Assembly (NCBI RefSeq): GCF_004010195.1
Contig: NC_057718.1
Span: forward strand, 2,614,996-2,678,995
Length of the DNA stretch: 64,000 bases
Source of the DNA: Chiloscyllium plagiosum
Taxonomy: Eukaryota
Direction of reading: 5' to 3'
Position 1 is the stretch's first letter. Each line of letters opens with the position of its first letter. Position numbers and translations under genes: made by a program. The notes beneath the pieces were generated by a model. That model did not search any database and was not told the origin of the DNA. It saw only the letters and a list, made by a program, of their open reading frames with translations. Of this stretch, positions 12,947 through 64,000 are shown piece after piece.

Positions 12947-14349
12947 CATATTGTACATTTTTAAATGTTCTGCCAATACCATCATCACCATCTCCCTAAT
13001 GTGGCTGAGTTAACTACATTGGCAGGTAGGGCATTCCACGCCCTTACCACTCTCTGAGTAAAGAACCAGCCTCTGACATCTGTCTTAAATCTATCACCCC
13101 TCAATTTGTAGTTATGCCCCCTCGTACAAGCTAATGTCTTCTTGAACAACTACAGTCCATTTGCAGTAGGTAGACCTTTAATGCCCTTAAGCAGGGAATT
13201 CAAGGATCTTGACCCAATGACACTTAGGAACATTGATATAATTCCAAATTAGGATGGTGAGTGGTTGAGATGGGAACTTGCAGGCAGTGATGTTCCCATG
13301 TATCTGATGCCCCTATCCTTCTAAATGGAAGTCATTGTGCATTTTGATCTTGCTGCAGAAGAAATTGTGCCCAAAATGTCAATGCATTTCTGAAGAGATT
13401 TAAATAATAGTATTGTACACATTGCATATTTAATTATTTTTGCTTATGTTGATGGATTTTGTTTGGTCAGAAACCGTCACACATGTAGTTCTATGGTTTA
13501 GTGTAAACCTGTTCTCGCTTTTTAACTCCTACCACCCTGACAGATTCATTCCATACAGCAGTACAGAGGATCTGTTCGTGTGGGAATAAGCTTATTCTGA
13601 TCTTTTTCTTTAAAGATCCAATCCTTCTCCAGTCTCCGAACCTGGAACGTGTCACCGAGGGTCACACTGCCCGGTTAAAGTGCACCAGGTGGAACGCCAC
13701 AGTGACACACCAATGTTCAGTAGTACCAGGAGCAACAAGGGAATAAAATAGAGTGGGTTTTAACACATGATGTGAGGAACATCGCAGGAAGGAGCCCAGG
13801 ATTCACTGACCGATTTCAGCCTTCCAGAAACCCCTCCAGTAACAACTTCAATCTGACCATCACAAACGTGCAGCCCAGTGACACTGGGGTCTATTACCGC
13901 TCAGTGTTGGAAAGTATCAATGGGAGAGGAAGCCAGCTCAATATCACCAGTAAATAGAGTTTACATGACAATCACCTTCAACAATAACATCTTGCCCAAT
14001 GAATGGATTGGAGATCAGTTTGTGATCAAGAAGATTGAGGAGGTGATGGAGAGTGATCTTGGGGATGGATTCTCTGTGGGGAGGAAGCTGAGCTCAGGTG
14101 CAGTAATTTATTTAATTGGTTTGTGAGATGTGGGTGTTACTGGCTGGGCCAGCATTTATTGCCCATCCTTCATTGCCCTTGAGAAGGTGGTGCTGAGCTA
14201 TCTTCTTGAACCACTGCAGTGGCCCATTGTCATTACTGGATTTAGGTTGGGCTCCTGCACAACCTGTTAAGACCCTGCTAAACGGTTGTTCAAAAGCTGT
14301 GATCAGGATTTCAGGTGAAGCTTTAACTGAGGGTTGGAGATTTCCCAAG
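12947..14349 (+). repeat. Segmental duplication, copy A (copy B at 43751-45157)
   Basis: Near-identical colinear 1.4 kb, offset 30804-30808. Confidence 0.97.
13616..13949 (+). pseudogene. Germline-joined VJ-type Ig V-domain exon (Va, copy A), pseudogenised
   Basis: Acceptor tttttctttaaag|, donor |gtaaat, phase 1-1. (D)PILLQSPNLERVTEGHTARLKCT..[-2 nt]..VQ*YQEQQG..GFTDRF..NFNLTITNVQPSDTGVYYRSVLESINGRGSQLNIT. TAG at the Trp position (13721); second Cys replaced by Arg. Confidence 0.92.
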
Positions 14350-15300
14350 TTCTGACATGGACCAGCTTGTCTGGTAAAATTTAACAGCTCTATCTAATCT
14401 TGACCAATAAATTTTTAAAAATATTTTAGCTTGTGTTCCTCATCCATAAATGACCTGCCATTGGAATTTCATGAGCTAAATTGTGAACATTCATTCTGAT
14501 CCTCAGATGGAGTGACCACCTGATGGATCACTGTCCATTCCTCATCACCTGGTATTTCCTCAATAATGCTTTACCTTTCAAGTAATAACACTAAGGGATT
14601 CTTCTGATTCCAATTCTCAGGAGGGTATTTGATAAAACTCTCCCAAGTCAGGATTTATTTCTTCCATTTCTGCTAAAGAAGATATTCTGAACATATCAGT
14701 CTTCTGTTTCTCTTCATTCTTTTCATCGACAAGTTTTTCAAAATTGAGTCTGATAACAGTAACTCCAATCAAACGCATTGTTTCATCAACCACTTTTCCC
14801 ATTGTTCTAACTGTGTGAACCTGACATCTAGTCACTATACCATCAGGAATCAATCCAGAATACTCCCCCCATACCATTTCAGTCTATTTCACCTCCATTG
14901 TTGTTAAACCATCCTTGGTAGCTAATGTGTTTGAATCTGCCAAGTCATTCCAGAAAAATAAATTCCCTAATAGGAATGTATTACACTCTTCCAACTACAA
15001 CAACTCCATAGACCAAGTTATTTATTAATTCGGCTCTGTTCAGTGATACTGGGGTGTAAGCACCAAGATTGCCTGCAATAAGTATTTTCTCATTCATTAA
15101 CCCTTCAGGAAAATAAACAGTCTCATCAGTGGCTGACTTGTTTAATTCTCTCTCAAAATCTATATTGGTTTACCTTTTTGATTTGAAACTGAAGGAGACA
15201 CCGTTCCTTTTGAGATGGAATTCTCAGAACATCACATGGTCTGAATTTATTAAGGCTTTTTTTTAATGATCCTCTTGTTCTTTATTTCTGTGATTTGACT
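14350..15300 (-). mobile_element. Old Gypsy (Gmr1-like) pol fragment, protease to integrase Zn-finger region
   Basis: Reverse strand gives degenerate ..IPDGIVTRCQ.., EEWTVIHQVV, LAHEIPMAGHL. Confidence 0.6.
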
Positions 15301-15309
15301 CTAAGCCAG

Positions 15310-15830
15310 GGTGTACTGGTGTTGAAGGAGGTTCAGATGATGATTACAAGAGTGATCCTGACAATCAAGGGCTTGTCATATGAGGAATAGCCGATGGCTT
15401 TGGGCCTGTATTCAATGAAGTTTATAGGGGAGGGGGGGGGGGGGGGGGGGGGGGATCTGATGCAAACTTACAGAATAAAAGGCCTGGATAGAGTGGATGT
15501 GAAGAAGATGTTTCCATGGGTAAGAGAGACTACGGTCCAAGGGCACAGCCTCAAACTGAAGGAACGACCCCTTAGAACTGACATGTGGAAGAATTTCTTC
15601 ACTTGAAGGGTGTTAAATCTATCAAACTCATTGCTGCAGAGGGTTGTTGAGGCCAAGTCATTGAGCGTATTTAGAGACAGATATATTTCTTGATTTATAA
15701 GGGATCAAGGATTACAGGAAGAAGACAGGTGAATGTGTTAAGAAGCATACCAGCCATGATCAAATGGCAGAGCAAACTCGATGGGCCAAATGGCCTTACA
15801 ACACTCCATTATCTCATAGTGCTTTGGTTT
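15310..15830 (+). mobile_element. CR1 LINE 3' fragment containing a ~23-nt poly-G run
   Basis: GDLMQTYRIKGLDRVDVKKMFP..KNFFT; G run ~15432-15454. Confidence 0.8.
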
Positions 15831-15964
15831 AAAATGTCTTGTTTATTTTGAATACTTACCTCTACTTTTTCACTCTTACAATCTGTCATTTCTCATTAAA
15901 TTTAAATTGGAGTTGTTCACAACCTTCAAACTAAATTTAATTTATTCACACTATTCTCTTAAAG

Positions 15965-16294
15965 CTGTAAATGTCTCTGACCTTGGAACGTGTCACCGAG
16001 GGTCACACTGCCCGGTTACACTGCGCCATGAGGAACATGGCAGTGACACAGACTGATGTTCACTGGCACCGGGAACAACCAGGACATAACACAGAGTCGG
16101 TTTTAACACAAGACATGAGGAACAACCCTTAAAATAGAGCCCAGGATTCACTCTACGATTCCAGTCATTAAGAGACCCCTCCAAGAACAGCTTCATTCTG
16201 ACCACCACAAACATGCAGTTCAGTGACACTGAGGTCTATTATTGTAAAATGTGGGGAGGTATCAGTGGGAATGGAACCCAGCTGACTGTAACAG
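15965..16294 (+). pseudogene. Germline-joined VJ-type Ig V-domain exon (Vb), pseudogenised
   Basis: Acceptor ttctcttaaag|, donor G|gtaagt. ..LERVTEGHTARLHCAMRNMAVTQTDVHWHREQPG..[stop/frameshift ~16130]..SPGFTLRF..SFILTTTNMQFSDTEVYYCKMWGGISGNGTQLTVT. N-terminal deletion relative to Va. Confidence 0.92.
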
Positions 16295-17229
16295 GTAAGT
16301 CCTGTTTATCTTAGAATAATCTAACACAGTAACCTTTTCCACATGGATTTATTGGAGATGAGAATGTGTTAAATTCCTCTGGTACAGAGAAAGCAGAGAG
16401 CTCAATATAAACATAGAATAGTTACTTTCTCTTGTTTTACTCCAAGATAGAATAAACGGTTTCTTCTCTTGGACCAGTTCCTCAATCTCAAACTCTTTCT
16501 CTTCTGCTTCTCCATCTCGTTTGTTCTCAGTGTTGTATTGAACATTCTCCTGTCTCTGTCTGGTTTTGTTTCATTCAGTCTTGGCTAATGGCCACCACTA
16601 GTTGGGCCAGCACTTATGGTCCATTTTGAATGGTCCTTGAGAAGAAATGTCTTCACCCAGAGAGTGGGGAACCTGTGGAATTCTCTGTCACAGGAAGCAT
16701 TAAGGCCAAAATATTGAATGATTTCAAAAAGGAGTGAGATAAAGTTCTTTCGGCTAATGGGATCAAAAAGTATTGGGGAAAAAATGTGAACAGGGGACTG
16801 AGTTGGATGATTAGCCATGATTATGTTGAAAGGCAGTGGAGACTAAATGGGCAGAATTACCTACTCCTCCTCCTTTCGATGCTTTGAGACTATGATGAAT
16901 GGAAACATTTCAGTCATGATCAAATTGCAGAACACATTCAATGGTCTGAATGACCTCATTCTGCTCCTATATCTCATGGTCTCATGGTCTAATGGTCTCA
17001 TGGTCTCATGGTCTCATGGTCTTTGTTTCAAATGGGAAATTTCAAACTCTCAGCTCTTGAGACTTTGGGTAATCATTTCCCACAACCCCTTGATGCTCAA
17101 TGACACTCCCATCTCTACCTCTGATGTCCTTTGCCTGAGCTAAAACCTTCTTCATCCCACCCTGGTTACACCCCTTCTTATGACACTCATTCATTCCTTT
17201 AGTCTAAAAGACACAGAAAGAGGGACACA

Positions 17230-23100: not shown

Positions 23101-25189
23101 ATGATGATTCCTCATGGTGATGACATCATCACTATCTCACAGCCTGTGACCTGAGAGTACAAAAATCTCTGACTCCATCTTGTATCAGATCACATAAAGC
23201 ATGCGACTGTACTGGAAATAATCCTGCTCTGTGTAACCCAACCGCTAATGTTAGCCCAGACATTGACAAGCCTGAGAAAGGTGATATTTGCATATAATAG
23301 GAGTCTCCTCCACTTCTGAAGCAGCTGCACACAATAGTAGCTTTTAGACTCATGAATAACACAATCCCCACACCCAGATTCTCATGTTCTCGGAGATAGC
23401 ATAAACATTGCTGCACCCTGTAAACTACCCTGTTGGAAGCAAAACTCGAAACATACTTTTAAGCTCACATTAATAGAGTGATCCCATTTCTGCAATGGCT
23501 AACAGGAAAAAGAGAAATATTAAAGCCTGTAATCTAAAACATGGACACAATTATGACTTATTTAGAATTATTTCACATTCTAACAATATTTACTGCTTAT
23601 GGGCAAAAGGGATTTCCCTCCCTGGAACCAGATCCATGTTAGCAGCCTCCTTCATTCATTAGTGTCAGTGGAAAAACATTTGTTTCTGAGACTGGAGAGT
23701 TTGGATTGAAAGCTGAGTCCGGAGATGTGATCGTACCATCCAGGCTGCTCCCTCAGTGCAGTACAGAGGCAGTGCAGCACTGTCAGCAGGACAGGCTTCT
23801 CAATGAGTTGTCACACTGAAGTCCTGTCTTCTCAAGCAGAAAACAAATTATCTTTAGAAGAAAATGTTTTCCTTAAAGGGTTGATAATCTTTGGAATTCT
23901 CTCTACCAAAGAATTGACAATGTTCCATCACTGAGAGTATTTCAGTTTGGAATGGACTGACCTTCAGTTTCTCCAAGAATTTCTGGGATATGAGGAACAG
24001 GTGGGAAAGTGTATTATCCGCCAGGATTGTATTGAATGGTGGAGCAGCTAGGAGAAGCTGCCGGCTTTACAAAATAAAAGCAAATTACTGCGGATGCTGG
24101 AATCTGAAACCAAAAGAGAAAATGTTGGAAAATCTCAGCAGGTCTGGCAGCATCTGTAAGGAGAGAAAAGAGCTGATGTTTCAAGGGACAAAGGGTCAGT
24201 TAGACTCGAAACATTAGCTCTTTTCCCTCCTTTCAGATGCTGCCAGATCTGTCGGCTTTACACTTGCTCCTATTCCTTATGTTCTTATATTCTGAAGCAA
24301 CATTGCTCTCCCAGTGACCTTGCTGTGTTTAAATCAGTTCCTCTTCTTTCTGATAACAGTGACCACACTTCAAAAGCACAATCCCAGATGGAAAATCAGG
24401 AACAAAATCAGGAATACTTGGACATGAACATCCCAGTCAGATTCTGAATTACACAAAGCAAGTTGGACCAGTACGTCTCATTTGGTAATTTGAGTGATTT
24501 GGCTTTCCTGCTGAAGGATCAGTCACTGTTCAACATAAGGGCTAATTGGAGATGAGCCAAGCTCAGCTGCTCTCCAATAACCACTCATGTGTGTCTAAGA
24601 GATCATGTAGAGATCTGGGATCAGTCCTCCTGGTCTCTCTCTCTGCCAGGGAGTAATGAAGAGAGACACAAGCTGTTATGGAGTGGAACTGTTTTTATCT
24701 TTTGTATTTTTGATTGTGAATTGAAATGGCAAATTAAAAGCTTTGCAAATCAAAGATTGTTGATGGACTGCTACACTTTCGGAGATCAACTAACCTGACC
24801 CTCATTGCAAGTGCTGTTTACACGGCTGACTGCTGGGGCAGTAGAGGAAGAGGGTTTGCAGACCAGGTAGAGCTGGAAGGTGGAGAGAGAGGGAAAGGCT
24901 CTGGGAGGAGGGTATGTAATAATTGAGATGTAACTGGCAACATGTAGCTGATTGGTTTGTGAACATGCGATCAATTATTGATAATAAATGTTTTCTGCCT
25001 CCCAATAGCAATGTGAGAATTCAAAGGAAGCTGAACAACTTTGGGAGTGTGAACAACAGAGAGAACCCATCAGACCTGTACCAGCTCAAAATCAGTCTCT
25101 CTGTTCTCTGCAGTAAAACAGTATTTTAAAGCTGAAGAAAGTCAGGTGATTCCTCCTTCAGCAATTCCTTTAAGCTGCAACTTTTAATG

Positions 25190-25280
25190 AATCAGTCAGG
25201 GAGCTGCTGTAAGTGTAAATCAGTCAGGGAGCTGCTGTAAGTGTAAATCAGTCAGGGAGCTGCTGTCAGTATGAATCAGT
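25190..25280 (+). repeat. 28-bp tandem repeat x3 plus partial copy, in the putative proximal promoter/5' UTR
   Basis: aatcagtcagggagctgctgtaagtgta at 25190, 25218 and 25246 (variant). Confidence 0.9.
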
Positions 25281-25393
25281 TCCTCCGGTGTCTCCTGTAA
25301 ACAGGTGAAAGCACAAGGAGAAGCAAGATTAAGAAACAGTGTCTGAGCAGCACAAGAATCAACTCAGAAAACTCTGTGGACAGGCAGTCTGAA

Positions 25394-25451
25394 ATGTCTC
25401 CCCAGTCTTTGTCCATAGCGCCCATATTTTTTATCTGTCTCTGCGTGCCTG
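25394..25451 (+). pseudogene. Signal-peptide (leader) exon of the Ig-like receptor gene
   Basis: gaaATG; MSPQSLSIAPIFFICLCVP+G, hydrophobic core, phase-1 end matching the V exons; donor GT (25452) immediately broken by a Penelope insertion. Confidence 0.65.
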
Positions 25452-25453
25452 GT

Positions 25454-25992
25454 GTTGTGGTTCTGTTCGCTAAGCTGGGAATTTATGTTGCAGACGTTTC
25501 GTCCCCTGTCTAGGTGACATCCTCAGTGCTTGGGAGCCTCCTGTGAAGCGCTTCTGTGATGTTTCCTCCAGCATTTATAGTGGGACAAACAGGAAGACAG
25601 CTAACGATCCACATCCATGAACACCAACTAGCCACGAAACGACATGATCAGCTATCCTTAGTAGCCACACACGCAGATGACAAGCAACATGAGTTCAACT
25701 GGGACAACACTCCTATTATAGGACAAGCCAAACAGAGAACAGCTAGAGAATTCCTAGAGGCATGGTACTCATCCACAGATTCAATCAATAAGCACATCGA
25801 CCTGGACCCAATATACCAGCCACTGCAGCGGACAGCTGGAACTGACAACCGGTAGCGGCAGATACAAATCACTTTCAATGCCGGAGGAAACATCACAGAA
25901 GCGCTTCACAGGTGGCTCCCAAGCACTGAGGATGTCACCTAGACAGGGGATGAAACACAAATTCCCAGCTCGGCGAGCAGAAACACAACAAC
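25454..25992. mobile_element. Short Penelope insertion with inverted pLTR (minus ~25454-25580, plus ~25581-25992)
   Basis: GQTGRQLTIHIHEH..REFLEAWYS; ends are mutual reverse complements; hammerhead 25490-25529 (-). Confidence 0.93.
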
Positions 25993-26689
25993 AAAGTTAT
26001 ATGTTAACAGCCCATCATCGTTTCCAAGTAACTATATACAATTTGTTTGTAATAAACTGGAAGTCTTGTTAAGGAAGGAAATCTCATTTGTGTTTTCTGA
26101 AAAACTGGTTCAAAAAGACAGGGAAATGGGGGACTTGTGTGTGGTTTATAAAATCTTTAAATTTTATGACAATTCCAGAAATAGCTGGCCTCCATGATGA
26201 GGTGTAACAAGAGACTTAAGACAAAAGGTTGGCTGTTCAGGAGAAATTGATTTGAAATCATAAATTGACAATGACACCAGCTCCTCCCTGTTCCAGGAAC
26301 ATGTACAGTGCAGAACAGTGAAGCTCACCTGCCTGTGTCCTGTCGGAGGAGGATCTGTCAGCTCCAGGGAGACACTGGTCACCAGCTGCTGTCACTGAGT
26401 CTGTGAGACAAATAATCACATGTCACAGGTAGGCAGCTGGGATGTTGTTGAGAGCATTTCCCCATAAAGACCACATCTTTATAATTGTCTTTATTGTGGA
26501 TTGCTGAACAAAATCAGAAAAGGGTATTGCTTTAAACCAAGGAAACCATGGAATACTATGAAGGTGAAGGTGTGTACTGTACCTTTAAGAGAGAGTGAAT
26601 ACTGTTTGTTTATTGGAACATTGTATTGTTATAGAGTTGAAAGCAGATTATAAGCAGTTAAGAGAAAGGGGGTTTAAGAGTTAGAAATA

Positions 26690-43750: not shown

Positions 43751-45157
43751 CATATTGTACATTTCTAAATGTTCTGCCAATGCCATCATCACCATCTCCC
43801 TAATGTGGTTGAGTTAACTACATTGGCAGGTAGGACATTCCACGCCCTTACCACTCTCTGAGTAAAGAACCTGCCTCTGACATCTGTCTTAAATCTATCA
43901 CCCCTCAATTTGTAGTTATGCCCCCTCGTACAAGCTAATGTCTTCTTGAACAACTACAGTCCATTTGCAGTAGGTAGACCTTTAATGCCCTTCAGCAGGG
44001 AATTCAAGGATCTTGACCCAATGACACTTAGGAACATTGATATAATTCCAAATTAGGATGGTGAGTGGTTTAGAGGGGAACTTGCAGGCAGTGATGTTCC
44101 CATGTATCTGATGCCCCTATCCTTCTAAATGGAAGTCATTGTGCATTTTGATCTTGCTGCAGAAGAAATTGTGCCCAAAATGTCAATGCATTTGTGAAGA
44201 GATTTAAGTAATAGTATTGTACACATTGTATATTTAATTATTTTTGCTTATGTTGATGGATTTTGTTTGGTCAGAAACCGTCACACATGTAGTTCTATGG
44301 TTTAGTGTAAACCTGTTCTCGCTTTTTAACTCCTACCACCCTGACAGATTCATTCCATACAGCAGTACAGAGGATCTGTTCGTGTGGGAATAAACTTATT
44401 CTTATATTTTTCTTTAAAGATCCAATCCTTCTCCAGTCTCCGAACCTGGAACGTGTCACCGAGGGTCACACTGCCCGGTTAAAGTGCACCAGGTGGAACG
44501 CCACAGTGACACACCAATGTTCAGTAGTACCAGGAGCAACAAGGGAATAAAATAGAGTGGGTTTTAACACATGATGTGAGGAACATCGCAGGAAGGAGCC
44601 CAGGATTCACTGACCGATTTCAGCCTTCCAGAGACCCCTCCAGTAACAACTTCAATCTGACCATCACAAACGTGCAGCCCAGTGACACTGGGGTCTATTG
44701 CTGCTCAGTGTTGGAAAGTATCAATGGGAGAGGAAGCCAGCTCAATATCACCAGTAAATAGAGTTTACATGACAATCACCTTCAACAATAACATCTTGCC
44801 CAATGAATGGATTGGAGATCAGTTTGTGATCAAGAAGATTGAGGAGGTGATGGAGAGTGATCTTGGGGATGGATTCTCTGTGGGGAGGAAGCTGAGCTCA
44901 GGTGCAGTAATTTATTTAATTGGTTTGTGAGATGTGGGTGTTACTGGCTGGGCCAGCATTTATTGCCCATCCTTCATTGCCCTTGAGAAGGTGGTGCTGA
45001 GCTGTCTTCTTGAACCACTGCAGTGGCCCATTGGTTGTCATTCCTGGGTTTAGGTCGGGCTCCTACACAACCTATTAAGACCCTGCTAAACGGTTGTTCA
45101 AAAGCTGTGATCAGGATTTCAGGTGAAGCTTTAACTGAGGGTTGGAGATTTCCCAAG
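43751..45157 (+). repeat. Segmental duplication, copy B
   Basis: Near-identical to 12947-14349. Confidence 0.97.
44420..44753 (+). pseudogene. Germline-joined VJ-type Ig V-domain exon (Va, copy B), pseudogenised
   Basis: Same splice sites, 2-nt deletion and TAG (44525) as copy A; ends DTGVYCCSVLESINGRGSQLNIT. Confidence 0.92.
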
Positions 45158-45579
45158 CAGCCCATCCTGTCTGCACTGACTCTTCAAATGAGCATCATTC
45201 CTGACTGCCAATGTCCTGCTCTCTCCCCACAGCCTTGCATTCTGTTAGGATTTAGAATCGAATGGAGCAAGAGTGAATCAGAGAGGGTGTGCTCAAGGAG
45301 CACTGATTCCAGGCTGTTTGAAACTTTCAACATTTTTCTTTTGGTTTTCTGTGAGAATGAATTTTTTTAAATGGCTGCTTGCTCTCTTCCAATCAGTCAG
45401 CTGTGAGCATTGTGAACTTCTCTCAATAGTTTATTCACAAAGTGAATCATACCAGCAAATTGGAAATCATTCAGCTAATGGTTATATTTCAAATCATTCC
45501 CTCTCAAATTACAAATAGCAATATCGACACAGGAAGGTTCAGTTCATCCTCTCCAAGTCATCATTGGCTATTTTTGTGT

Positions 45580-47870
45580 TTTTATTGAAGAAAATCTGTG
45601 AGGAGATGCCTGGGAGCTGTCAACTTGTGAACCTGATATCGGGGAGGGTAAGTTGTTGGAGGGGATTCTTACAGACAGGATTTGCATGCATTTGGAGAGG
45701 TAAGGACTAGGTATAGTCAACATGGCTTTGTTTGTGGGAAATCGTGTCTCACAAAATTGAGTTATTTTTGAGAATCTAAGCAACACGATTGATGATGGCA
45801 GAGCAGAGGACATTGTCAGCATGAACATTAGTATCTCCTTTGACAAGGTTCTGCATAGTAGATTAGTCAAGTGAGATCACATGGGATTCAGAGAGTGCTT
45901 TCCAATTGGATACAGAATCAGCTTGATGGTAGAAGATGAAGGTGGTGGTAGAGGATTATTTTTTGGAGGCCTGTAACCTATGGTGTACTGGAGGGAATGG
46001 TGCTGAACCATCTTTCTTTCGTCATTTGTATAAATGATTTGAATAGGAATATAAAAGGCATGGTTCGTACATTTGTATATGACAGCAATATTGGTGGACA
46101 GTGAAGAACATTATCTAAGATTACAAAGGGATCTTTATCAACTGTGGCAATGGGCTGAAGAGTAGCAGATGGAGTTTAATTTGGATAACTGTGTGGTATT
46201 GCATTTTGGTAAGACAAACAAGGGTCTTCCATAGTGTTATCAAACAGTGACCTTGGAGTTCAAATGCATAGTTCTTTGAAAGTAACATTGCAGAGAGACA
46301 AGGTGCTTAAGACATGATTTAACAAGCTTGCCTTCATGGTTTAGGCCTTTGGGTATAGGATGTGGGATGTCAAATTGAGGTTGTACAGGACATTTGTGAT
46401 TCCACTATTGAGGTACCGTGTACAGTTCTGGTAGCCCTGCCAGAGGAAGAATATTATTAAATTGGTCAGGGTTCAAAAGATTTACCAGGATGTTGCTGGG
46501 AATGGAAGTGTTGAATTATAAGGATGGGCTGGATAGGTGGGGACATTTTCACTGGAGCGTAAGAGGTAAAGGTGTGACCTTGTAAAGATTTATGAAATCA
46601 TGAGGGGCGTATCTAAGATTAATAGCAAAGGTCTTTTTCCTAGGTGGTTAATTTCAAAATTAGGGGGCACATTTTAGTTTGTAGAATTGAGAGACGTAAG
46701 AGTTGAGAGATATAGCTCTCTGAAATGTGTGTCAGGTTGTTACAATGGCATTTCCCTCACTTGCCTTCACTGCTCTAACATTTCAGTTTTTGAGTTGGAA
46801 TATCATGTTGAGATTGTAGGACATTTTAACAAGCTTGCCTTCATGGTTTAGACCTTTGGGTATAGGATGTGGGATGTCAAATTGAGGTTGTACAGGACAT
46901 TTGTGTTTCCACGGGGTACCGTGTACAGTTCTGGTAGCCCTGCCAGAGGAAGAATATTATTAAATTGGTCAGGGTTCAAAAGATTTACCAGGATGTTGCT
47001 GGGAATGGAAGCGTTGAATTATAAGGATGGGCTGGATAGGTGGGGACATTTTCACTGGAGCGTAAGAGGTAAAGGTGTGACCTTGTAAAGATTTATGAAA
47101 TCATGAGGGGCGTATCTAAGATTAATAGCAAAGGTCTTTTTCCTAGGTGGTTAATTTCAAAATTAGGGGGCACATTTTAGTTTGTAGAATTGAGAGACGT
47201 AAGAGTTGAAAGATATAGCTCTCTGAAATGTGTGTCAAGTTGTTACAATGGCATTTCCCTCACTTGCCTTCACTGCTCTAACATGTCAGTTTTTGAGTTG
47301 GAATATCATGTTGAGATTGTAGGACATTGGTGAGGCCCCTTCTGGAGTACTGTGTGCAGTTCTGGTCACCCTACCATCAGAATGATATTATTAAGTTGGA
47401 CAGGGTTCAAAAAACAGCTATCAGAATGATGTTGGGAATGGAGTGTTTGAATTATAAGGATGGGCTGGAATGCCTGGGGATTTCCCCAAAGGGTGAAAGG
47501 TGACCCTTGACAAGATTTATAAAATCATGAGGGGTGCAGATAAAGTGATAACAAATGTCTTATCCCTTGGGTGAGGAAGTTCAGAATTACAAGGAAACAT
47601 ATTAAGTTGAGAAAAGCTTTAAAAAGGCCATTACTGGTATCTTTTTTTACAGAGAGTGTGGTTCATGTGTGGAATGAGCTGCCAGATGAAGTGGTGGATG
47701 TAGATACAGTGACAACATTCAAAAGAAATTTCAACAAGTGCCTAAATAGGAAAGGTTTGAAGGGGTAGACCAAACGCAGACAACTAGGACTAGTTCAGCT
47801 TGGGAACATGGTCGGCATGGACTGGTTGGACAGAAGAGTTTGTTTCCGTGCTTTCTGTCTCTATGACTCT
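45580..47870 (+). mobile_element. Degraded CR1 LINEs containing a ~505-bp tandem duplication (46318-46824 / 46825-47328)
   Basis: [37 protein letters not shown]; the direct repeat is visible by eye. Confidence 0.85.
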
Positions 47871-47942
47871 ACTTACCCAGAGAGAGATTTTATAAAATGT
47901 TACAATTCAAGTTACATTTTTCTTTCTCTTCAATATGAACAG

Positions 47943-48289
47943 AACCATTGGTTGATCCAGTTCTCATTCAGGATCCAGTAGTCAGCAAGGTAGCAGAGGA
48001 TGAAACTGTCAAGTTCCAGAGTGCCATGTACAATGCCAATGTGATTGACACTGTGCCCATTGGCACTACCAATAACCTGGCAGCAACAGGGAGTGGGTGA
48101 TAAGCCACTTTGTGAATGGTACCCTCACCAAGGCCCAGGCTTTCCCCAATCGTGTTGAGCTTTCCAGGAATGTCCGCAGGAACAGTTACATTCTGAGCCT
48201 TGTGAATGTGACTCTCAATGATACTGCTATGTACAGCTGCAGTGTGTGGAGCTACATCTATGGAGCAGGGAGCCAGCCCAATGTAACTG
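47943..48289 (+). pseudogene. Germline-joined VJ-type Ig V-domain exon (Vc), pseudogenised
   Basis: Acceptor ..tgaacag|, donor G|gcaagt. PLVDPVLIQDPVVSKVAEDETVKFQS(C->S, 48020)AMYN..[-1]..HWHYQ*PGSNREWVISH..FPNRVELSRNVRRNSYILSLVNVTLNDTAMYSCSVWSYIYGAGSQPNVT. Confidence 0.92.
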
Positions 48290-48902
48290 GCAAGTCAATG
48301 GGAGTGAACACTGGTGTGACCAGGGAAGGGAGCACCCGGCTGCTGTGCTTCATCAGTGGAAGTGCAGAATGGTCATCAAGACCAAGTATTCCCAAGGCAG
48401 GATGGGGAGTGGCTTGGAGGGGAACTTGCAGGGGGTGGTGTTCCCTTGTAGCTGCTGCCCTTGTTCTAGGGAGAGGAAGTTGTGAGTTTGGAAGGTGCTG
48501 TCTGAGAATCTAAGGTGAATTTCTGCAGTGTATCTTGCAGATAGTACACACTGCTTCTACTGAGCATTGGTGGTGGAGAGAGTGAGTGTTTGTGGATGTG
48601 TGCCAGTCAAACAGGCTGCTTTGTCCTGGATGATGTTAAGCTTCTTGAGTGTTGTTGGAGCTGCCCCCATCCAGGTAATTAGGGCGTATTCCATCACACC
48701 CCTGACTTGTGCCTTGTAGATGGTGGATAGACTTTGGAGGTCAGGTGAGTTACTATCTTGAGGAACTCAAAATTAATGTTGTTGACAATCTTGGACATTG
48801 CTCAGACTGAAGTGACTGTGTGTGTGATATTCTGATATTTTACCTTTCTCTGAATGTATGCTCTTCACCTCATTTACCTTATTTCATCACCCATCTTCAT
48901 TC

Positions 48903-49734
48903 CAAGGGAGACTTGGATAAACTGCAGAATTGGGCTGAGAGGTGGCAAATGGAGTTCAATGCAGATAAATGTGAGGTGATTTATTTTGCAAAGAATAACA
49001 GGTAGGCAGAATATTGAGTCAAAGGAAAGATTCTTGGTAGTGTTGATGTGCAGAGGGATCTTGCAGTCCATGTATATCGATCTCTGAAAGTTGCCACCCA
49101 GGTTGATAGTGCTAATAAGAAAGCCCACTGTGTTAGGTTTATCGGTAGAGGGATTGAGTTCTGGAGCCGTGATGTCCTGCTGTAACTGTACAAAACGCTT
49201 GTGTGGCCTCATTTGGAGTATTTTGCGCAGTTGTGGTCACCCCATTACAGGATGTGGAAGCATTGAAAAAGGTACAGATGAGATTTACCAGGGTGTTGCC
49301 TAGTCTGGAGGGAAGGTCTTATGAGGAAAGGCTGAGAGACTTGGGTCTGTTCTCATTGGAGAGAAGAAGGCTAAGAGGGCACTTAATAGAGACATACAAG
49401 ATGATCAGTGGATTAGATAGGGTAGACAGTAAGAGTCCTTTTCCTTGGATGTTGACATCTGTTTGTAAGAGGGGGCATAGCTACAAATTGAGAGATGATA
49501 GATTTCAGACAGATGTCAGATGCAGATTCTTTACTCAGAGAGTGGTAAGGGCGTGGGATGTCCTGCTTGCCAATGTAGTTAACTCAGCCACATTAGGGGC
49601 ATTTAAACAGTCTTTGAATAAGCACATGGATGATAATGGGATAGTGTAGAGTGATGGGCTTAGATTTGTTCGCAGGTCAGCACAACATCAAGGACCGAAG
49701 GGCCTTTTCTGCGAGGTGTCATTCTATGTTCTAT
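48903..49734 (+). mobile_element. CR1 LINE 3' fragment (same family as 2610-3525)
   Basis: GDLDKLQNWAERWQMEFNADKCEV..; ttctatg-type tail. Confidence 0.92.
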
Positions 49735-49829
49735 AATAATAGCCCTGCAGTCTGGGTCCTTCCAAAGATAAAGAGACATTCTGAAGTTGTTCTTTGTTTC
49801 TGTATTAGCTTATCCTGGACAGCATTCCA
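49735..49829 (+). pseudogene. Possible transmembrane-exon remnant, 5' end disrupted by CR1
   Basis: Hydrophobic stretches (SPAVWVL; ILKLFFVSVLAY or VVLCFCISLSW depending on frame) ending at consensus donor |gtgagt (49830); lies between Vc and the cytoplasmic exons. Confidence 0.45.
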
Positions 49830-50488
49830 GTGAGTCGGTGACTATGAGACCAGGAGAAATAGGAACCTGAGAAGGCCATTCAGCCCATCGAGCCTGCTCT
49901 GTCATTTAATATAATCATGCCTGATCCAACATTCCTCACGCTTTTATCCTGTAACTTTTGATTCCCTGGATGATCAAATATCTATCTGTCTCAGCCTTAA
50001 ATATACACAAGGACTCTGCCCCCACAGCTCTCTGTGGCAAGGTATTCCAAAGACTCACAACTCTCTGAGAAAAACAATTCCTCCTCATCTCAGTCTTAAA
50101 TTGCAACCTTATTTTTCTGAGATATGCCTCTTATCCTGGACTTGTTCTAGCTCCATTCGAACATTAGCTTCTTTCTCGGTCTTTACCAACAGACAGTGCA
50201 GCAAGTTTTTTTGAAGAAATCTCTCCCTTCCACAGTCACTAATAACAACAACTTGGCCAAGTATCCCACCATGCCCTCGGGTTTTGGTCACATTCTTTCC
50301 TTTGTTGTTCAGACAAATTCTGGCCTTTTTAGCAAATGATCCAAGTATTTAGAGCATTCTTTCTGTCTTTAAGCTAGCCTCAAAAGTCTTTAGAGTAAAG
50401 TGTAAAGTCTACCAGCGCAAGTGTCTAAACATTATAGCGTTGTTTGTGGTAAATGTGTGATAACTCTAATGTGTGGCATTTTTTTTAG

Positions 50489-50532
50489 AAGCCCTGTTGA
50501 AGACTATAGCACTGTGTGTGCAACAGTGAATG
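50489..50532 (+). pseudogene. Cytoplasmic exon 1 (SPVEDYSTVCATVN)
   Basis: ttttttttag| ... G|gtaagc; TVCATV is one substitution (TGT vs TAT) from an ITSM TxYxxV. Confidence 0.65.
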
Positions 50533-51932
50533 GTAAGCAAATTAATTCAATCATTATCACAATATTTGCTAGGAATTACTCTCTGTCACAAATATCCATT
50601 TTACGTGGTTAGATTCATGATGTGTTTAATAAGCTAATAGTCAGAGCAGTCATTTGTCTGATTGACATATTTATTGCAGTGAGACGAACATAGAACATAG
50701 AATACAGAACATAGAACATAGAACAGTACAGCACAGTACAGACCCTTCAGCACACAATGTTATGCCGAGCAGTTATCTGAATCTCAGATCAACCTAATCT
50801 ATGCACCCCTCAATTTACTGCTGTCCATATGCTTGTCTAGCAGTCACTTAACTGTCCCTTAACACAATCATTAAAACAATGTTTCGCCCACATTCCTATC
50901 ATTATTCGTTGTAGCCGCATCCACAGAATTATACTCCAATCTCAACTTATTAATTTTCCAATGAACTGACTCCTGCTCACTTCCCTGTTTTGAACTGTGA
51001 AAGCAATTCCATGATTTTTGTCTGAATCCAATTGCATGAATCAATCACTGTTCCAGTGGCTCAACTTTTTTCAGTTCAAACAACCTGAAGGTTTCCCTTA
51101 CAGGTTCTCCCTGTTTGGAAAAAAAAAACACAGGCTGGAAAAACATTGCTGTTGTGTTGACTGGCATCTTCTCCACTGAAAATTCCAGCTGGGAGAGAAA
51201 CTCAAATTTCATTCTGAATTCAAATCTTGGTTATTTTGAGCTTAATCTCTGTTTATTTTTTGAACTGAACTCAAAACAAAATTCAAAGCTGAATTTACAT
51301 TGCTTGTCATAAACTCAGAAGTATATCCAACTGATTTCTGTAATACTCCAGAGATTGTCCCAATTCACTGGTAACAGTCACGTGTCTTTTTAGAATTATT
51401 GCATTGAATTACTGTTCCAGAATGACTTTCAGACCTTTTAAAGGAATCTCAACAATGCAAATCCATGTTCACGTGTTGCTTTTTAAATCATTCTAAATTT
51501 CAAAAATGATATATATTACACACCATTCATCACAAAAATGTTCGATCAAAGATAAGGAGAAAGGTTTTCACTGGACAGAGTTGCTAAGATCTGGAACACA
51601 CTCCCTGAAAAGGTGTTAGAAGCTGATTCCATAACAACTTTGAAGAGGGGTTTGGACAGGTATTTGAGGATGAGGACTGTCAAGAGAGGGCTGTGGGGTT
51701 GAGCACAATAACTCTTTAAAAGATCTAATGCGGGTGTGATTGGCGGATGGTGCGCTCTCTCTGTGCTGAGTTTGTCTGATTGACATGATGAATGTTATAA
51801 CGGAGAGCAGTGTCTAGGATTCACACCAGGTGCCTTCCTCTAAAACTGCCCAAAGTCACACTGGCATTTTCCCATCACCATCTTTCCCAGTTTAAAGAGC
51901 TCGATTGTGACTTGGCTCCATTCTGAAGAGGT

Positions 51933-52072
51933 AAAAACAATGACTGCAGATGCTGGAAACCAGATTCTGGATTAGTGGTGCTGATGAAGGGCTTTTGCCT
52001 GAAACGTCGATTTTACTGCTCCTCAGGATGCTGCCTGAACTGCTGTGCTCTTCCAGCGCCACTAATCCAGAA
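51933..52072 (+). mobile_element. Non-autonomous Penelope pLTR-derived insertion with hammerhead core
   Basis: ctgatga-agggcttttgcct-gaaacgtc (51981-52008); 16-bp TSD tccattctgaagaggt (51917-51932 / 52073-52088). Confidence 0.85.
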
Positions 52073-52108
52073 TCCATTCTGAAGAGGTTTCATTCTGTTT
52101 TCTTTTAG

Positions 52109-52152
52109 ATCGAACACGGAGCAGTGAGCGAGCAGCAGTTCCTCCTGTTGTG
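52109..52152 (+). pseudogene. Cytoplasmic exon 2 ((D)RTRSSERAAVPPVV)
   Basis: ttttcttttag| ... GTG|gtaagg; phase 1 in, phase 0 out, matching both neighbouring exons. Confidence 0.65.
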
Positions 52153-53193
52153 GTAAGGAAATGGGACACCACTGTTGGTTTTTGCTGCATTTTGAGAAAC
52201 AAGAGCCACATCCGGGAGGAACATTAGTATCACCAGAATGATTACAAATCATAACTTGTAACACACACTGTTCCACAAAAGGCTTTGACTGAAAATAATC
52301 AAAGAGCAGTCAATCATTTCCTTCTTTTTAATCTTCGGACAAGTTGCATGAACAGAAATGTCCACAACTTTTGAGTGCCTGGGAAATGCTCTCACATTTT
52401 GTGGGACTACCATCACAGACAGAATGCCCTGGGATCTATGTTCCTCCTAATGGATTGTTCAGGTGCAGGGGGACTCTCTGAGGGCTGAGATTAAGAAGGG
52501 GGAATGAGCCAGTACCTTGTGGCTGTAATTCAATCTCAATTCCAACTTCCTTCGCTATCTCCAATGTTCTTCATTCCCTCAGTATAAAACTGATTGGTAT
52601 CTGGTGTCTGTGAGGAGCTGAAACCCACAACAAGCCCTGGGTCAGGAAGATTCAATCCCTGCTCTGCTCCAAATGAGCTACTGCAGTTGGGGGAGAGAGG
52701 AGCTTGGCTCCATTGACCTCAACACCTGAGATTAAGAAGGGGGGGGATGAGCCAGTGTTCCAGCTTTTCCCTCCCAGATCATGTTCCGAACATTCTTGGA
52801 TAGCAGCCAGGCCTCAGTAGGGACTCTCTTGCTGCTCACTCAGATGGATGTCAATTCAAGCCTCAGTGCACAGATTTGAGCACAGATTTTGGGCTGACCC
52901 TCCAGGGCAGTACTGAGGGAGTGCTGCTCTGTAAAAGCTGCCTCTCTTTTGGGCATGGAGTGAAATCTGGATCCCCTCTGCTGCCTCGGATGGATGTAAA
53001 ATATCCCTGGGCAATACTTTGGCAGAGAGCAGAGAGGTTCTGCTGAACTCCCTGGGTGATGCGTGTCCATTCCCCAACATTCACCAAAGCAGACTATCTG
53101 CTCAGCACTGCTGCTGGGATCTTGCTGTGTACAAATGAGCACCTCCCGATGTCTGTGAGGAAATTACTGAGTGATGTTCATGTTCGATTCCAG

Positions 53194-53358
53194 CATGCTG
53201 AAGGGGAATGTCATTATGCTGAGGTTCACTTTCACTGACAAGGAAGCAGCCAGCTGACAGTGACAACTGCTGAAAGGAGCTCGGAGTACGCAGTTATAAA
53301 ATGGTCAAGAAACTGTAGTTCAACAGGACCCTTTCACTCTGCAGCAAGGAGCAGTTAA
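53194..53358 (+). pseudogene. Terminal cytoplasmic exon with two ITIM-type motifs and an internal stop
   Basis: ttccag|HAEGECHYAEVHFH*QGSSQLTVTTAERSSEYAVIKWSRNCSSTGPFHSAARSS*; TGA at 53236, SEYAVI at 53281-53298. Confidence 0.75.
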
Positions 53359-53454
53359 GAGCAGCTCATTCGAGCAGAATCATCTCAGCTTCAACTTCAC
53401 ATTCACACTTCAGATTCAGGCTTCCTCACCAACAACCATCTCATATCCATATAT

Positions 53455-54080
53455 TCCGAGACCCAGAGATTTACTGGGCACTCAAACCGTCCCAGCCACT
53501 GAGGTTACTGGGCATTCCGACTCTCTCAGACCCTAAGATGACTGGGCACTCAGACAGTGCAGCAGCTCAGCATGGGGGTGAAAGGTGCAGGAGGCAGTTC
53601 AGTCCCTCACTGAGATTATTTGGAGCACACAGCCCTCTGCTGCTCCCTCTAACATTGTGCGGAACAACAGCAGGGACATTGTGGGAACAGCTTGAATTGT
53701 GAGTTCCCTCCAAGTCCCAGTCCATCCTGATTTGGAATCTCAGCCTTTCCTTCCTCAGCACTGGCTCTGGTTATTGGGATTCCCCAGTTAGCAGCCAGCA
53801 CTGGGTCAATAGATAGCCCAGGCAGAGCTGAGCTTGATCAGGATGAGGCAAGTCATGCCTTAAACTGGAGACATTCGTCACATTGTTGGGAAAAATAATG
53901 ATTGACAGTTTGATCATTAAAGTTGGAAGATCCCCAGAGTGTTGCCTGGATCTCTGGTAAAATCGTCTCATGATAATCCCACTCCGACGTTGCCTGCTGC
54001 TCAGTGTGATTGGCTCGGTTCCTGTTTTCATTGAAGTTTAAATCTTGCCTGGCAGTTTGAGTTGGTTTAATTTTGCCAGT
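53455..54080 (+). repeat. 3' flank/UTR segment of the receptor gene, paralogous (inverted) to 10850-11520 and 9466-9660
   Basis: Reverse-complement match, including degenerate 34-bp units. Confidence 0.88.
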
Positions 54081-54264
54081 TGTTTCTGAACTGTTGCCCT
54101 CATTTTTCCTAGCCAAGCATTTAGATAGATCAGAGAAACAATCAAGTGCAGCAGAGTTAGAAAAGGTTGCATAGCAAATGAGACAATTGGAGTTAGATAG
54201 TGAACTGTAGGAGAAAGAAAGGGAAAGAATGCTTGAGTTGGAAAAGATGAAGTTGGAACTTTCA

Positions 54265-54583
54265 TGCAATCCTTACAGTGTGGAAACAGGCCTCTCAGCC
54301 CCACAAAGAGACCCTCTGAAGAGCAATCCACTCAGACCAATTCCTCTACCCCCTTTTTTTTATCCCTGACTAGTGCACCTAACCTACATGACTCTGAATA
54401 CTATGGGCAATTTATCATGGCAAATTTACCTAACCTGCACATTTTTGGATTCTGGGAGGAAACTGGAACACCCAGAGGAAACCCATGGGTTGAATGTGCA
54501 AACTCCACACAGACAGTCGTCCAAGGCGGGAATCGAACCCGAGTCCCTGGTGCTGTGTGGCAGCAGTGCTAACCATCGAGCCA
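54265..54583 (-). mobile_element. HE1/V-SINE-type SINE
   Basis: Same family as 88-370. Confidence 0.85.
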
Positions 54584-54976
54584 TTATAACTTGGAGCAAA
54601 AGGACTTCAAAAAACAGAAATAAAATTATAGGATAGAAGTGATGATAAGCAAACTCATCGTAGCCAACTTCTTGGTCGGGATATATACCAATATGTCCAA
54701 ACATTACCAAAATTTGATGAAAAAGCTGCCGAAGATTTTTTCATTTCCTTTGAGAAATTGGCTAACCAGATGAACTCGCGAGAGAGTGTGTGGCTAATGT
54801 TAATTCAGTCCAAGTTGGTCGGCAGGGCTCGTGAGATGCTTGCAGCACTGTCAGAGGCGGTGTCAGGAGAACATGAGGAAATGAAAAAGGTGATGTTGAG
54901 TGACTATGAATTGGTACCAGAAGCACATTGACGATGGGTCAGAAATGTAAGAAAAGAACCATGTCAGACTTATACC

Positions 54977-55250
54977 ATCATGATTTGGAGATGCTGGTGT
55001 TGGACTGGGGTGTACAAAGTTAAAAATCACATGACATTAGGTTATAGTCCAACAGGTTTACTTGGAAGCACTACCTTTCAGAGCGCTGCTCCTTCATCAA
55101 GTGGTTGTGGAGTACACAATTGTAAGACGATTGTGTCTTACAATCTTATACTCCACAACCACTTGATGAAGGAGCAGCGCTCTGAAAAGTAGTGCTTTCA
55201 ATTAAACCTGTTGGACTATAACCTGATGTCATGTGATTTTTAACTTTGTA
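54977..55250. mobile_element. Palindromic (fold-back) non-autonomous element
   Basis: 55013-55250 is a near-perfect inverted repeat; TSD gacttatacc (54967-54976 / 55251-55260). Confidence 0.88.
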
Positions 55251-55989
55251 GACTTATACCGAGTTTTAAAAAATTAAACAGAATAACTTTAATTGATGGA
55301 TGAGAGCATTAAAGATAGAAAAGATACACGAGAGATTATTCTGCTGCAGGAGTTTAAAAACTCACTTCCAGAAGTGATAAGAACTCATGTTGAGCAACAG
55401 AAAGTTCAGACAATGTGAAGAGCTGTAGGGAGGCTGATGAACATGTGTTAGTGTTTAAAACGAAATCTAGTTGCCGACAGCAATTTCATTCTGTGAGGGA
55501 TAGAAATTGGGAAAAAGGATGATCCTTTAATGAAAACCAAAAAGGAGATCACCCTGGGAGAAATTTATCATATGTGACAAAAGAAACCCAAGAACATGGA
55601 AAAGAGGTGAAAGACCTCAGATGTTTTCATTGCAATAAGGTGGGATAAACAAAGTCATGGTGCTGGGGGTTTCAAAAGGTGCTGGGAGAAAGGATGTGGT
55701 AAAAGGGGCTAATCCAGTGGCATTGGTTAAGGCAGTGAAAGAAATCCTAAAAGAAGTGCAGGAAAGTGCACAGCTTAGTCACAGGCTGGATAGTGAGATA
55801 GTGCCAGACCTTTTCAAAGACTTCATCTGTGTGGGTAAGATTTATGCAGGTAGAACAGGGAGAGTAGGTAAAAAGGGTTAAAATATTGAGGGATACGGGA
55901 GCCAGTCTGTTTCTAATAGTAAGAGATGAAAATATTTGCCCTCCTTCTGAAATATTGCCCGACAGCATGGTAACCTGTGGAATAAATGG

Positions 55990-56780
55990 AGAGAGGAACA
56001 AAAGGATGGTCAGAGTGATGGTGGGGCCGATCAACAATAGTGCAGGGAACTTGTGCCTGGAGTTGGAGAAGGTAGGGGAGGTCCTGAATGAATACTTTGC
56101 TTCAGTGTTCACTACTGAGAGGGACTTTGTCATTTTTGGGTTGTTAAGTAGGTGTATGGTGTATTGGCTTTCATTAGCGGGGGATTGAGTTTAAGCACTG
56201 TGAGGTTATGCTGCAGCTCTATAGAGCTCTGGTTAGACTGCACTTGGAATATTGTGTTCCGTTCTGGTTGCGTTATTACAGGAAGAATGTGGAAGCTTTA
56301 GACAGGGTGTAGAGGAGATTTTTCAGGATGTTGCTTGGACTGGAGGGCATGTCTTATGAAGAAAAGTTGAGGGAGCTCGGGCTTTTCTCATTGGAGAGAG
56401 GAAGGATGGGAGGTGACTTGATAGAGGTGCACAAGATGATGAGAGGCACAGAGAGAGTGGGTAGCCAGAGACTTTTTCCCAGGGCAGACATGGTGATCAC
56501 AAGGAGCTATAATTTTAAGATGATAAGAGGAAGGTTTAGAGGTGATGTCAGAGGTAGGTTATTTGCACAGAGAGTGGTAGGTGCATGGAATGCATTGCTA
56601 GTGGTGGCAGTAGAGTCAGAGACATTAGGGACATTTGAGTGACTCTTGGACAGGCACATCATTGATAGTAAATTGAAGGGTATGTTGGTTAGTTTGATCT
56701 GAGAGTAGGATAAAAAGTCGGCACAACAAAAATGGCCGAAAGGCCTGTACTGTGCTTTATTGTTTTATGTTCTACGTTTA
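55990..56780 (+). mobile_element. CR1 LINE fragments nested in the Gypsy protease region
   Basis: GEVLNEYFASVFT; GGDLIEVHKMMRG; AQRVVGAWNAL. Confidence 0.88.
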
Positions 56781-59700: not shown

Positions 59701-60252
59701 AGGGGTTATTGAGTTTGATATTGGCCACACAGCATTTTAATGTTTACTTTGCAAACAATGTATCAGAGATAATTGTGTATATTGATCACAATGTTTTGAC
59801 GTTTCCAGAGAGATTTGATGACACGAACACCAGATTATTTTGCTGGAGTCTCAGGTTACAAGCATTGACTTTACAGATTGTACATGTGAAAATATTATCA
59901 TAGATGCATTATCGTGAGCTTAAAAGAAAAATGCTCATCTAAGATAGAAATCGTAGTATTCAATGTTTTGTACAAATAACATTAGTGTAAAATGTGTAAC
60001 TCCAGATTAATAAACTATGGATGCAGTAATATCATAGATTATGGTTTTAAAAGAAGAAACAAAAAAATGAAGTCATCTTTTTATAATGATGGCTCAATTT
60101 TTTCATAAGGGACGAGGTGTTGCAAGGTTGGGTAGAGTACTAGTAGATTGGGAGGCAGGGAGTTAGAATTTGGTGTTTATAAAATGCTTGGGGAGTGGGG
60201 GGGAAGTGAAGCATTGCATGGTCCCTTTAAAAGATGGTGTTTTTCTGTGTTT

Positions 60253-63200: not shown

Positions 63201-64000
63201 GCCATTTTGGTTAACAAGTACTGGTTCCCACTTTTAGTTCTCGGGAGGGGAACTACACAATCAATTATAACCCAAGTGAAAGGTTCTTCAAATGTGGGAA
63301 TTGGTAACAAAGGTGCTGGTTTTATTACCGCCTGTGGCTTACCTATCATTTGGCATGTATGACACATATGACAAACGTTAACCACAGCCTTGTGCATTCC
63401 AGGCCAATAAAAGTATTTTTGTACCTTGGTCTGAGTCTTTCGTACCCCTAAGTGACCTTCAACAGCTAGTTCATATGCTACCTGTAACGCCGCCTGTCTG
63501 TATGCCACAGGCAACACAATCTGGTGCACTTCGTCCCATTTCTCTTTGGCACTAACCTGCCGTGGTCGAAATTTCCGTCTTAGGATTCTATCTTTCAGAT
63601 AATATCCCTCCGGAATATTCTCTGCCTCCTTTTCGGAGTGCACATCCACATATCTTTTTTATCATCTTGTCTTGCTGTTGTAAGTCCCTTAGCCTTTCAG
63701 GACTAAACACTTTTGTCTGACCCTCTGCCTGTTCAGGTTTTTCCTGCACCATTACTTCAAACAGGGTATCTGCTAACTGAACCTCAACTCCTTCAGCTTT
63801 CTCTTTAGTTTTTGCTTTGTGCTGTGACTTAAAATGGTGGGATCTGGTTACTACACAGTCTGGAAAATACCAGGATATTTCTGTTTTACCTCCTCAGTTT
63901 CTTGGTTTACCTTGGGCTTCTCCACAACAAGGGGTGTCACTCCCACCTTGGATCCTGCCAAATCATTCCCAAGAATAAACGTAATTCCTGGAACTGACAT
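60253..64000 (-). mobile_element. Gypsy (Gmr1-like), runs off the window end: INT, RT, RNase H, PPT, 3' LTR 60253-60939
   Basis: ORFs 62978-63649 (INT), 62250-62960, 61866-62275 (RT), 61391-61591 (RNase H); PPT atggggggagg; LTR family as 4066/6921. Confidence 0.92.

Follow-up and report, generated by a model that had tools for sequence, protein, structure and literature searches.

Three mini-exons in a 64,000-nucleotide stretch of the Chiloscyllium plagiosum genome (hereafter the window; positions 2614996-2678995 of contig C9, the window's own contig, in genome G000) together encode a cytoplasmic tail in which one tyrosine motif has lost its tyrosine and another lies beyond a premature stop. 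The question raised by this locus is whether such lesions mark a live receptor on its way to a non-inhibitory function, as an earlier note on this DNA had suggested, or the neutral decay of a broken gene. We favor the second reading, to which we assign a probability of about 0.87: the exons are the tail of a broken copy with no transmembrane (TM) exon and a frameshifted ectodomain, the motif lesions are most likely neutral decay, and the intact relatives are likely paired inhibitory/activating receptors. The window copy is of little importance in itself, and the interest lies in the family rather than in the lesions. To our knowledge, innate or NK-type receptors of sharks have been catalogued only poorly, and a cluster with both inhibitory and ITAM-bearing members, kept across sharks and rays, represents a concrete candidate system.

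Tail exons of the window copy

All three exons lie on the forward strand with consensus splice sites. T1 (50489..50532), flanked by AG at 50487-8 and GT at 50533-4, is entered in phase 2 and left in phase 1 and contributes SPVEDYSTVCATVN; T2 (52109..52152), entered in phase 1 and left in phase 0, contributes DRTRSSERAAVPPVV, a product identical to that of an intact neighboring gene; T3 (53194..53358) carries CHYAEV (53209-53226), a premature TGA (53236-53238) and SEYAVI (53281-53298). The position of the neighbor's own stop, 53314-53316, reads TGT in the window, and the next stop, at which read-through would end, is the TAA at 53356-53358. The junction phases, 1 then 0, are exactly those originally claimed, and the interpretation of T1-T3 as an ITSM/ITIM-type tail is borne out by the intact neighbor (database model P0012), which has the same spliced tail. 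By the definitions in PMC12151841, SEYAVI is a strict ITIM and TVYATV an ITSM, CHYAEV being a variant only. The proposal that the motifs have been individually inactivated holds for the proximal one, which reads TVCATV (50511-50528) with its tyrosine replaced by cysteine (codon TGT, 50517-50519), but not for the distal pair: CHYAEV, with a cysteine at -2 and hence no strict ITIM, is untouched, and SEYAVI is intact and simply cut off by the stop. T1 of the window also has a new tyrosine (50501-50518; CAG>TAT) four residues upstream of the lost one. At the codon of this new tyrosine, L013, a paralogue, reads TAA, and both have Thr at -2.

Ancestral letters and splicing among the paralogues

A genome search with T3 DNA returned 10 matches, namely the exon itself, 7 paralogues in which the exon is complete, one duplicate of a 3' piece and one match to UTR only, and a search with T1 returned 11, namely the exon itself, 9 matches with the exon and 1 without; all fall on the window's contig at C9:2.68-4.02 Mb. 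The conservation of tyrosines and splice sites on which the earlier note depended is largely what these paralogues display, and the exon arrangement is not a product of chance. The TAT expected at 50517 is present in 7/9 paralogous T1 exons (the remaining two read CAT and TAA), and the sense codon expected at 53236 is CGA in 7/7 full T3 exons. The suggested origin of the TGA through CpG decay likewise agrees with the data, as 3/5 CpGs of the neighbor's T3 read TG in the window. The derivation of TVCATV from TVYATV fares less evenly: TGT does replace TAT, but the residue at Y-2 is I, V or A rather than T in 8/9 local paralogues, T being the majority state in the family at large (28/48 inhibitory-type database proteins). 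Splice sites are mostly kept, the T1 acceptor in 8/9 paralogues and its GT donor in 7/9, the T2 acceptor in 6/6 and its donor in 5/6, and the T3 acceptor in 6/7. Other broken copies exist in the cluster: L008/L009 (3.21 Mb) have lost the T2 donor and the T3 acceptor and have a duplicated SEYAVI piece, and L003 (2.90 Mb) has a 43-nt insertion in T2.

Four RNA or RNA-guessed runs were compared with window positions 50300-53700. For two of these, X19 and X20, which are contigs whose RNA kind was guessed, one contig each joins 50532 to 52109 and 52152 to 53194 at GT..AG boundaries, which establishes the junctions as real for the family. These contigs carry the neighbor's letters and not those of the window copy: the 14 differences from the window that were listed across T3 and the UTR, CGA included, match the neighboring paralogue L002, and no spliced contig seen came from the window allele. 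The remaining two runs did not cover the exons, the reads of single-cell run X21 falling on intronic repeats only and run X22 yielding none.

Lesions elsewhere in the window copy

An intact paralogue, the gene matched by P0012, lies 5 kb beyond the window's end in tail-to-tail orientation and has, besides V exons and a TM exon, counterparts of all three tail exons; all lesions described here were defined against it. At the site where a TM exon is expected (48844..49754, forward strand), homology to the neighbor stops at the acceptor (48843) and is followed by a fragment of a non-LTR retrotransposon (~48905-49735) resembling window 2810-3527, whose open reading frame is RVT_1. No TM exon was found in the window with blastn and tblastn queries of the neighbor's TM exon, which match only the upstream intron there and have 3 matches in the other sequence blocks examined; there is no N gap in 44000-54000. 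The ectodomain is equally damaged. The membrane-proximal V-set exon Vc (47943..48289, forward strand) has suffered a first canonical Cys>Ser substitution, a 1-nt deletion near 48053, a TAA near 48073 and a donor change from GT to GC, the Vb exon was removed by a deletion of ~4.7 kb whose junction lies at 45145..45158 on the forward strand, and the V-set exon Va (44420..44753, forward strand) has a 2-nt deletion near 44508, a Trp codon changed to TAG and further indels. Farther upstream, two more broken V exons lie on the forward strand (13616..16295): Va' (13616-13949), which has the frameshift of Va and is 98% identical to that exon, and Vb' (about 15966-16295), which is frameshifted. Four leader queries found no match in the window. 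The window copy therefore has no open frame from leader through V, TM and tail and would make no receptor, with the proviso that a leader or TM exon could sit outside the stretches examined.

The window also holds remnants of an activating-type family tail on the minus strand (23460..26400), with exon A2 from 26400 and a last ITAM exon from 23498 whose tyrosine is lost; the middle exon was not found. Recent internal duplications relate 13196-14349 to 44000-45157 (98%) and 46308-46825 to 46817-47328 (97%). On the minus strand, 10932-11518 and 9465-9658 are 86-88% copies of the sequence 3' of T3, with a 34-bp tandem repeat, and no coding exon was found beside either. The motif-like strings LEYATV at 10782 and EYLDMNIP near 24420 have no homology to the family's coding exons and were taken as chance. 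Many decayed mobile-element fragments, which we take to be LINE, Penelope-like, gypsy-like and SINE sequences (RVT_1 alone being a Pfam match), occupy 1-8000, 17000-43000 and 54000-64000, together with three N gaps of about 500 bases.

A receptor cluster with two tail classes

The window copy belongs to a cluster, roughly 2.2 Mb in length, of receptors of cartilaginous fish whose VJ domains are arranged in tandem, each on a single exon. A Vc protein search of the genome placed about 110 of the 150 matches listed on C9:2.02-4.26 Mb, 16 of them at an identity of at least 85%. Each V exon has two cysteines and a J-like YGxGSQLxVT end, and members carry up to 8 V domains. Two database searches returned 46 and 117 proteins, all named ones from sharks or rays, under database names that are wrong and varied (SIRP-like, pIgR-like, perlecan-like and others). 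Regular expressions assigned 119 proteins to 48 inhibitory-type, 24 ITAM-type, 7 short-tail and 16 other members plus 24 without a called TM, where the ITAM type was defined by YxxL-x6-8-YxxL/I, mostly after YEN[V/I], and the inhibitory class by two distal tyrosines, whose constancy is consequently circular. One protein, P0092, has an ITAM and a mis-called TM. Both classes are found in sharks and in batoids. A wider profile search detected related V domains, and of the 20 looked up among the 150 matches listed, five were from Callorhinchus milii, where P0254 belongs to a cluster and has three V domains and a TM, and none was a close bony-vertebrate member. The family spans sharks and rays and has V-domain relatives in a chimaera. 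In the literature covered, which did not extend to subscription journals, no description of the family was found; a prior description is thus possible, and the family may be uncatalogued.

Inhibitory- and ITAM-type genes both occur in the window's cluster, with Vc exons 88-96% identical. The intact neighbor P0012 has IVYTTV and SEYAVI in strict form, CHYAEV as a variant and a TM without charged residues, the sequence pattern of an ITIM/ITSM receptor, and the combination of clustered paralogues, similar ectodomains and opposing motifs is that of a paired receptor family. The ITAM gene P0004, compared with this inhibitory neighbor, is 82% identical in the TM and 79% in T1 at the amino acid level and then continues into three different downstream exons, its ITAM being split across the last two. 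Because the two gene types can share a near-identical TM and first tail exon, activating forms arose here from different exons (YENV plus ITAM) and not through the erosion of ITIMs, by which the earlier note had supposed paired non-inhibitory receptors to form.

Judged from their motifs, intact members appear to be type I receptors with tandem VJ domains. SH2-binding rules are the basis on which partners can be assigned. Ligand binding would be followed by phosphorylation of the tail tyrosines by Src-family kinases; tails with [T/I]VYxTV, xxYA[D/E][I/L/V] and [T/S]EYAxI would then recruit SHP-1/SHP-2, and tails with YEN[V/I] and YxxL-x7-YxxL/I would recruit Grb2 and Syk/ZAP-70 without an adaptor held by a charged TM. 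New copies would form by tandem duplication and exchange of exon modules, and many would die.

Several further features of the cluster and its surroundings may be recorded. A third tail class, YENI plus YxN[M/V] without an ITAM or ITIM pair, is encoded by L077-L078 (C9:2.02 Mb) and P0093. Off the main cluster, L089 and L096 (C34:26.08 Mb; C98011) contain a divergent relative like P0252, which has 2 V domains, a TM and the same three-tyrosine tail. At C9:4.459 Mb (L121:9146-9544), some 190 kb away from the last exon of the family that could be located, there is an exon with a Pfam ALO (lactone-oxidase) domain, probably that of GULO, and L119 (C9:4.349 Mb, minus strand) has a 157-aa open frame that resembles a genuine exon and has no Pfam match. 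Synteny with the mammalian IgH telomeric region was considered and dismissed, as the PACS and TMEM121 families are on contigs other than C9.

Probable neutral decay and its alternatives

Neutral decay, not tuning, most likely accounts for both motif lesions in a copy that has no TM exon and frameshifted V exons. Across Vc, T1 and T3, the window has 13 nonsynonymous and 3 synonymous private substitutions over 397 and 110 sites, a dN/dS of about 1.2 (binomial p=1.0) that comes from 16 substitutions and has little power. The chance that private changes hit at least one of the three tyrosine codons is about 0.23. Private changes rich in nonsynonymous substitutions occur in several other paralogues too, some of them without a stop in Vc.

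It is very unlikely that the window carries a polymorphic null allele, or a mosaic due in part to misassembly, of a locus that is functional in other individuals. Such a view might draw on the highly repetitive nature of the cluster and on a mosaic pattern of identities (69-79% to paralogues in the T1 region versus 87-94% in T3 and Vc), but four DNA runs from two studies agree with the window at 50517-9, reading TGT in 4/4, and contigs bridge the right LINE junction in 4/4, the left junction (48843) and the V frameshifts being known from the assembly alone. The Va frameshift, moreover, is common to two window copies, and there are more than six independent lesions. A null allele could also draw on position 53236, where the stop appears in 0/4 DNA runs, three being without cover and the only independent contig over the position reading CGA; that contig differs from the window by 6 letters and a 3-base insertion and from the 7 assembled paralogues by 12-21 letters. 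The stop may be private to the assembly or haplotype, and loss of the TM exon is probably, with moderate confidence, older than the stop.

The selected, stepwise loss of tyrosine motifs from a live receptor turning non-inhibitory, which was the earlier note's own suggestion, is hardly tenable for this copy. Its TM exon is absent, Vb is deleted, Va and Vc are frameshifted, no leader was found in the window, the private changes are neutral, activating members use other exons and the spliced contigs seen include no RNA of the window allele. These observations outweigh the facts that 2/3 motifs are affected, that consensus splice sites are kept in all three tail exons and that the proximal tyrosine is absent in 9/48 otherwise complete inhibitory-type database proteins. 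By the last count, loss of the proximal motif would seem to be tolerated elsewhere in the family, and motif loss in live genes may occur. It is just as hard to credit that the copy makes no receptor yet matters as a transcribed pseudogene or as a gene-conversion donor of tail modules, for although T2 is protein-identical to the neighbor's, splice sites are intact and segment identities vary as sharply along the gene as conversion predicts, the spliced contigs match the neighbor and no donor event is demonstrated. Pseudogenes are routine in paired-receptor clusters.

Comparison with known receptor systems

The Siglec/KIR likeness perceived in the tail stands for the tail only: the distal pair resembles that of CD33-related Siglecs, but the ectodomain is not Siglec- or KIR-like. 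In Siglecs, a single V-set domain at the N terminus precedes C2 domains, and there are extra cysteines; P0012 has 4 V-set stretches, with 2 Cys in each of the three scored by pattern. KIRs and LILRs consist of C2-type Ig domains only, and all 3 exons compared with Pfam matched V-set best. SIRPs in their long form have a VJ domain and then C1 domains; the family has neither SIRP C1 nor Siglec C2 domains, and no C1-set match was obtained in P0012, P0004, P0254 and P0252, although PF07654 is listed for 3/117 database rows and the tree described below has no SIRP row. NCR3/NKp30 has a charged TM residue, unlike the family, which has an average identity of 23% to the rows labeled NCR3-like by the analyst, the only ones of that kind in the comparison. 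CEACAM N domains are not VJ-type. Siglec, KIR/LILR, SIRP and NCR3 were accordingly rejected as identities for the family. PDB sequence searches with two V exons gave only engineered antibody fragments among the best 60.

Likeness in signaling is broader. As described in PMC2442602, the NITRs of bony fish are a clustered multigene family with V domains ending J-like, ITIM tails and both inhibitory and activating forms, all traits shared by the present family. However, the six-cysteine I domain of NITRs is absent here (2 Cys per domain, in up to 8 V domains), NITR activating forms pair a charged TM with DAP12 where this family has an intrinsic ITAM and an uncharged TM (0 charged residues in the called TM across 23 ITAM-type proteins), and NITR-like V rows did not group with the family in a 79-row tree; an NITR identity was accordingly rejected. 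Teleost NILTs and CEACAM pairs also combine cytoplasmic-ITAM and ITIM members within one family, according to the abstracts of PMC3022915 and PMC2832619, but the domains of the present family are antigen-receptor-like VJ with two cysteines, and those of NILTs are TREM/NKp44-like (PMC3031540). PMC3031540 also describes the MDIRs of skate, multigenic activating/inhibitory receptors of a cartilaginous fish as here, with CD300/TREM/pIgR-like domains, most CD300 domains having two cysteine pairs; the family has one cysteine pair and a J-like end, and the missing second pair sets it apart from MDIR, CD300 and NILT alike. By analogy, the family may resemble NITR, NILT or CEACAM pairs in its way of working.

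The PD-1 consensus given in PMC12151841, (I/V)(D/E)YG(E/V)L(D/E)F and (T/V)EYATI 25 apart, is of the same kind as the distal pair of the family, YxE/Dx[F] then EYAxI at a spacing of 24 residues, and SIRP-alpha and CD33-related Siglec tails share this arrangement. PD-1 differs in being a single-copy gene with one V domain, and the third, proximal motif of the family is on an exon of its own. UrIg, as reported in PMC12227049, has one VJ followed by C1 domains, is located in the MHC or antigen-receptor complex and has a single-exon VJ in elasmobranchs. UrIg and UrIg2, non-rearranging shark VJ genes, thus share the single-exon VJ domain, but the family has V domains only, tyrosine-motif tails and a cluster of roughly 2 Mb; its VJ is not succeeded by C1 constant domains, and neither UrIg/UrIg2 nor an Ig light chain was accepted as its identity.

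V-domain affinity to sigma-2 light chains

The nearest named V domains are those of sigma-2 light chains (P0259), at a mean identity of 40.9%, as compared with 30% for sigma, 28% for lambda and kappa, 28% for TCR, 25% for IgH and 23% for NCR3-like groups, all labels other than sigma-2 having been assigned by the analyst. The genome contains split sigma-2 V genes with a heptamer as well as joined sigma-2 genes, and one germline-joined gene ends CEVWGYIYGGGT, similar to the family's CSVW[S/G]YIYGAG. The VJ of this light chain (also sigma-cart, type I or NS5) is accordingly the family's nearest V relative with a similar junction end, whereas the family differs from sigma-2 light chains in having no C1 domain, tandem V exons and its own TM and signaling tail. 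No RSS was seen beside the V exons inspected. Skates and nurse shark are known to have joined sigma-2 genes (PMC5192425).

Long NITR branches distorted a first tree of 79 rows. For the second, 42 of these rows were retained and 5 new ones included; the 37 omitted were every NITR-like row (4), two divergent V rows of the family and redundant family, sigma-2, lambda and kappa rows. The family forms a single clade (100/96) in the resulting tree of 47 rows; it lies outside the sigma-2 clade and groups with sigma-2 and one unplaced VJ as its sister (91/76, not starred). AU tests rejected neither placement outside all antigen-receptor V domains (p-AU 0.51) nor placement outside all Ig V domains (0.26); light-chain monophyly was rejected (p 0.003), a result that may reflect IgH placement and is hence unused as support. 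The sigma-2 affinity bears on whether the VJ exons are of primordial age or were recycled from antibody genes joined in the germline, and both origins would be compatible with the trees. Single-exon VJ genes have been sought as relatives of the gene split by the RAG transposon (PMC12227049). We consider it possible, but rather doubtful, that this chondrichthyan-wide paired family took its VJ exon from a RAG-mediated joining of sigma-2 V and J in the germline before the shark/chimaera split, the exon then being multiplied and given ITIM or ITAM tails. If true, an innate receptor family would have been built from a frozen product of adaptive recombination.

Some related genes were encountered during these comparisons. 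L087 (G000:C39:27806019-27806354), whose sister is whale-shark P0314, is a germline-joined sigma-2 light-chain VJ that has a C exon and a junction of very short length. L095 (G000:C101085) is a single-exon VJ gene 42% identical to sigma-2 V, and L090 (G000:C45:12483082) is another, with a C1 exon 5 kb downstream. Finally, turtle P0174 and P0255 have four VJ-like domains and a three-tyrosine tail, a similar layout at about 23% identity to the family.
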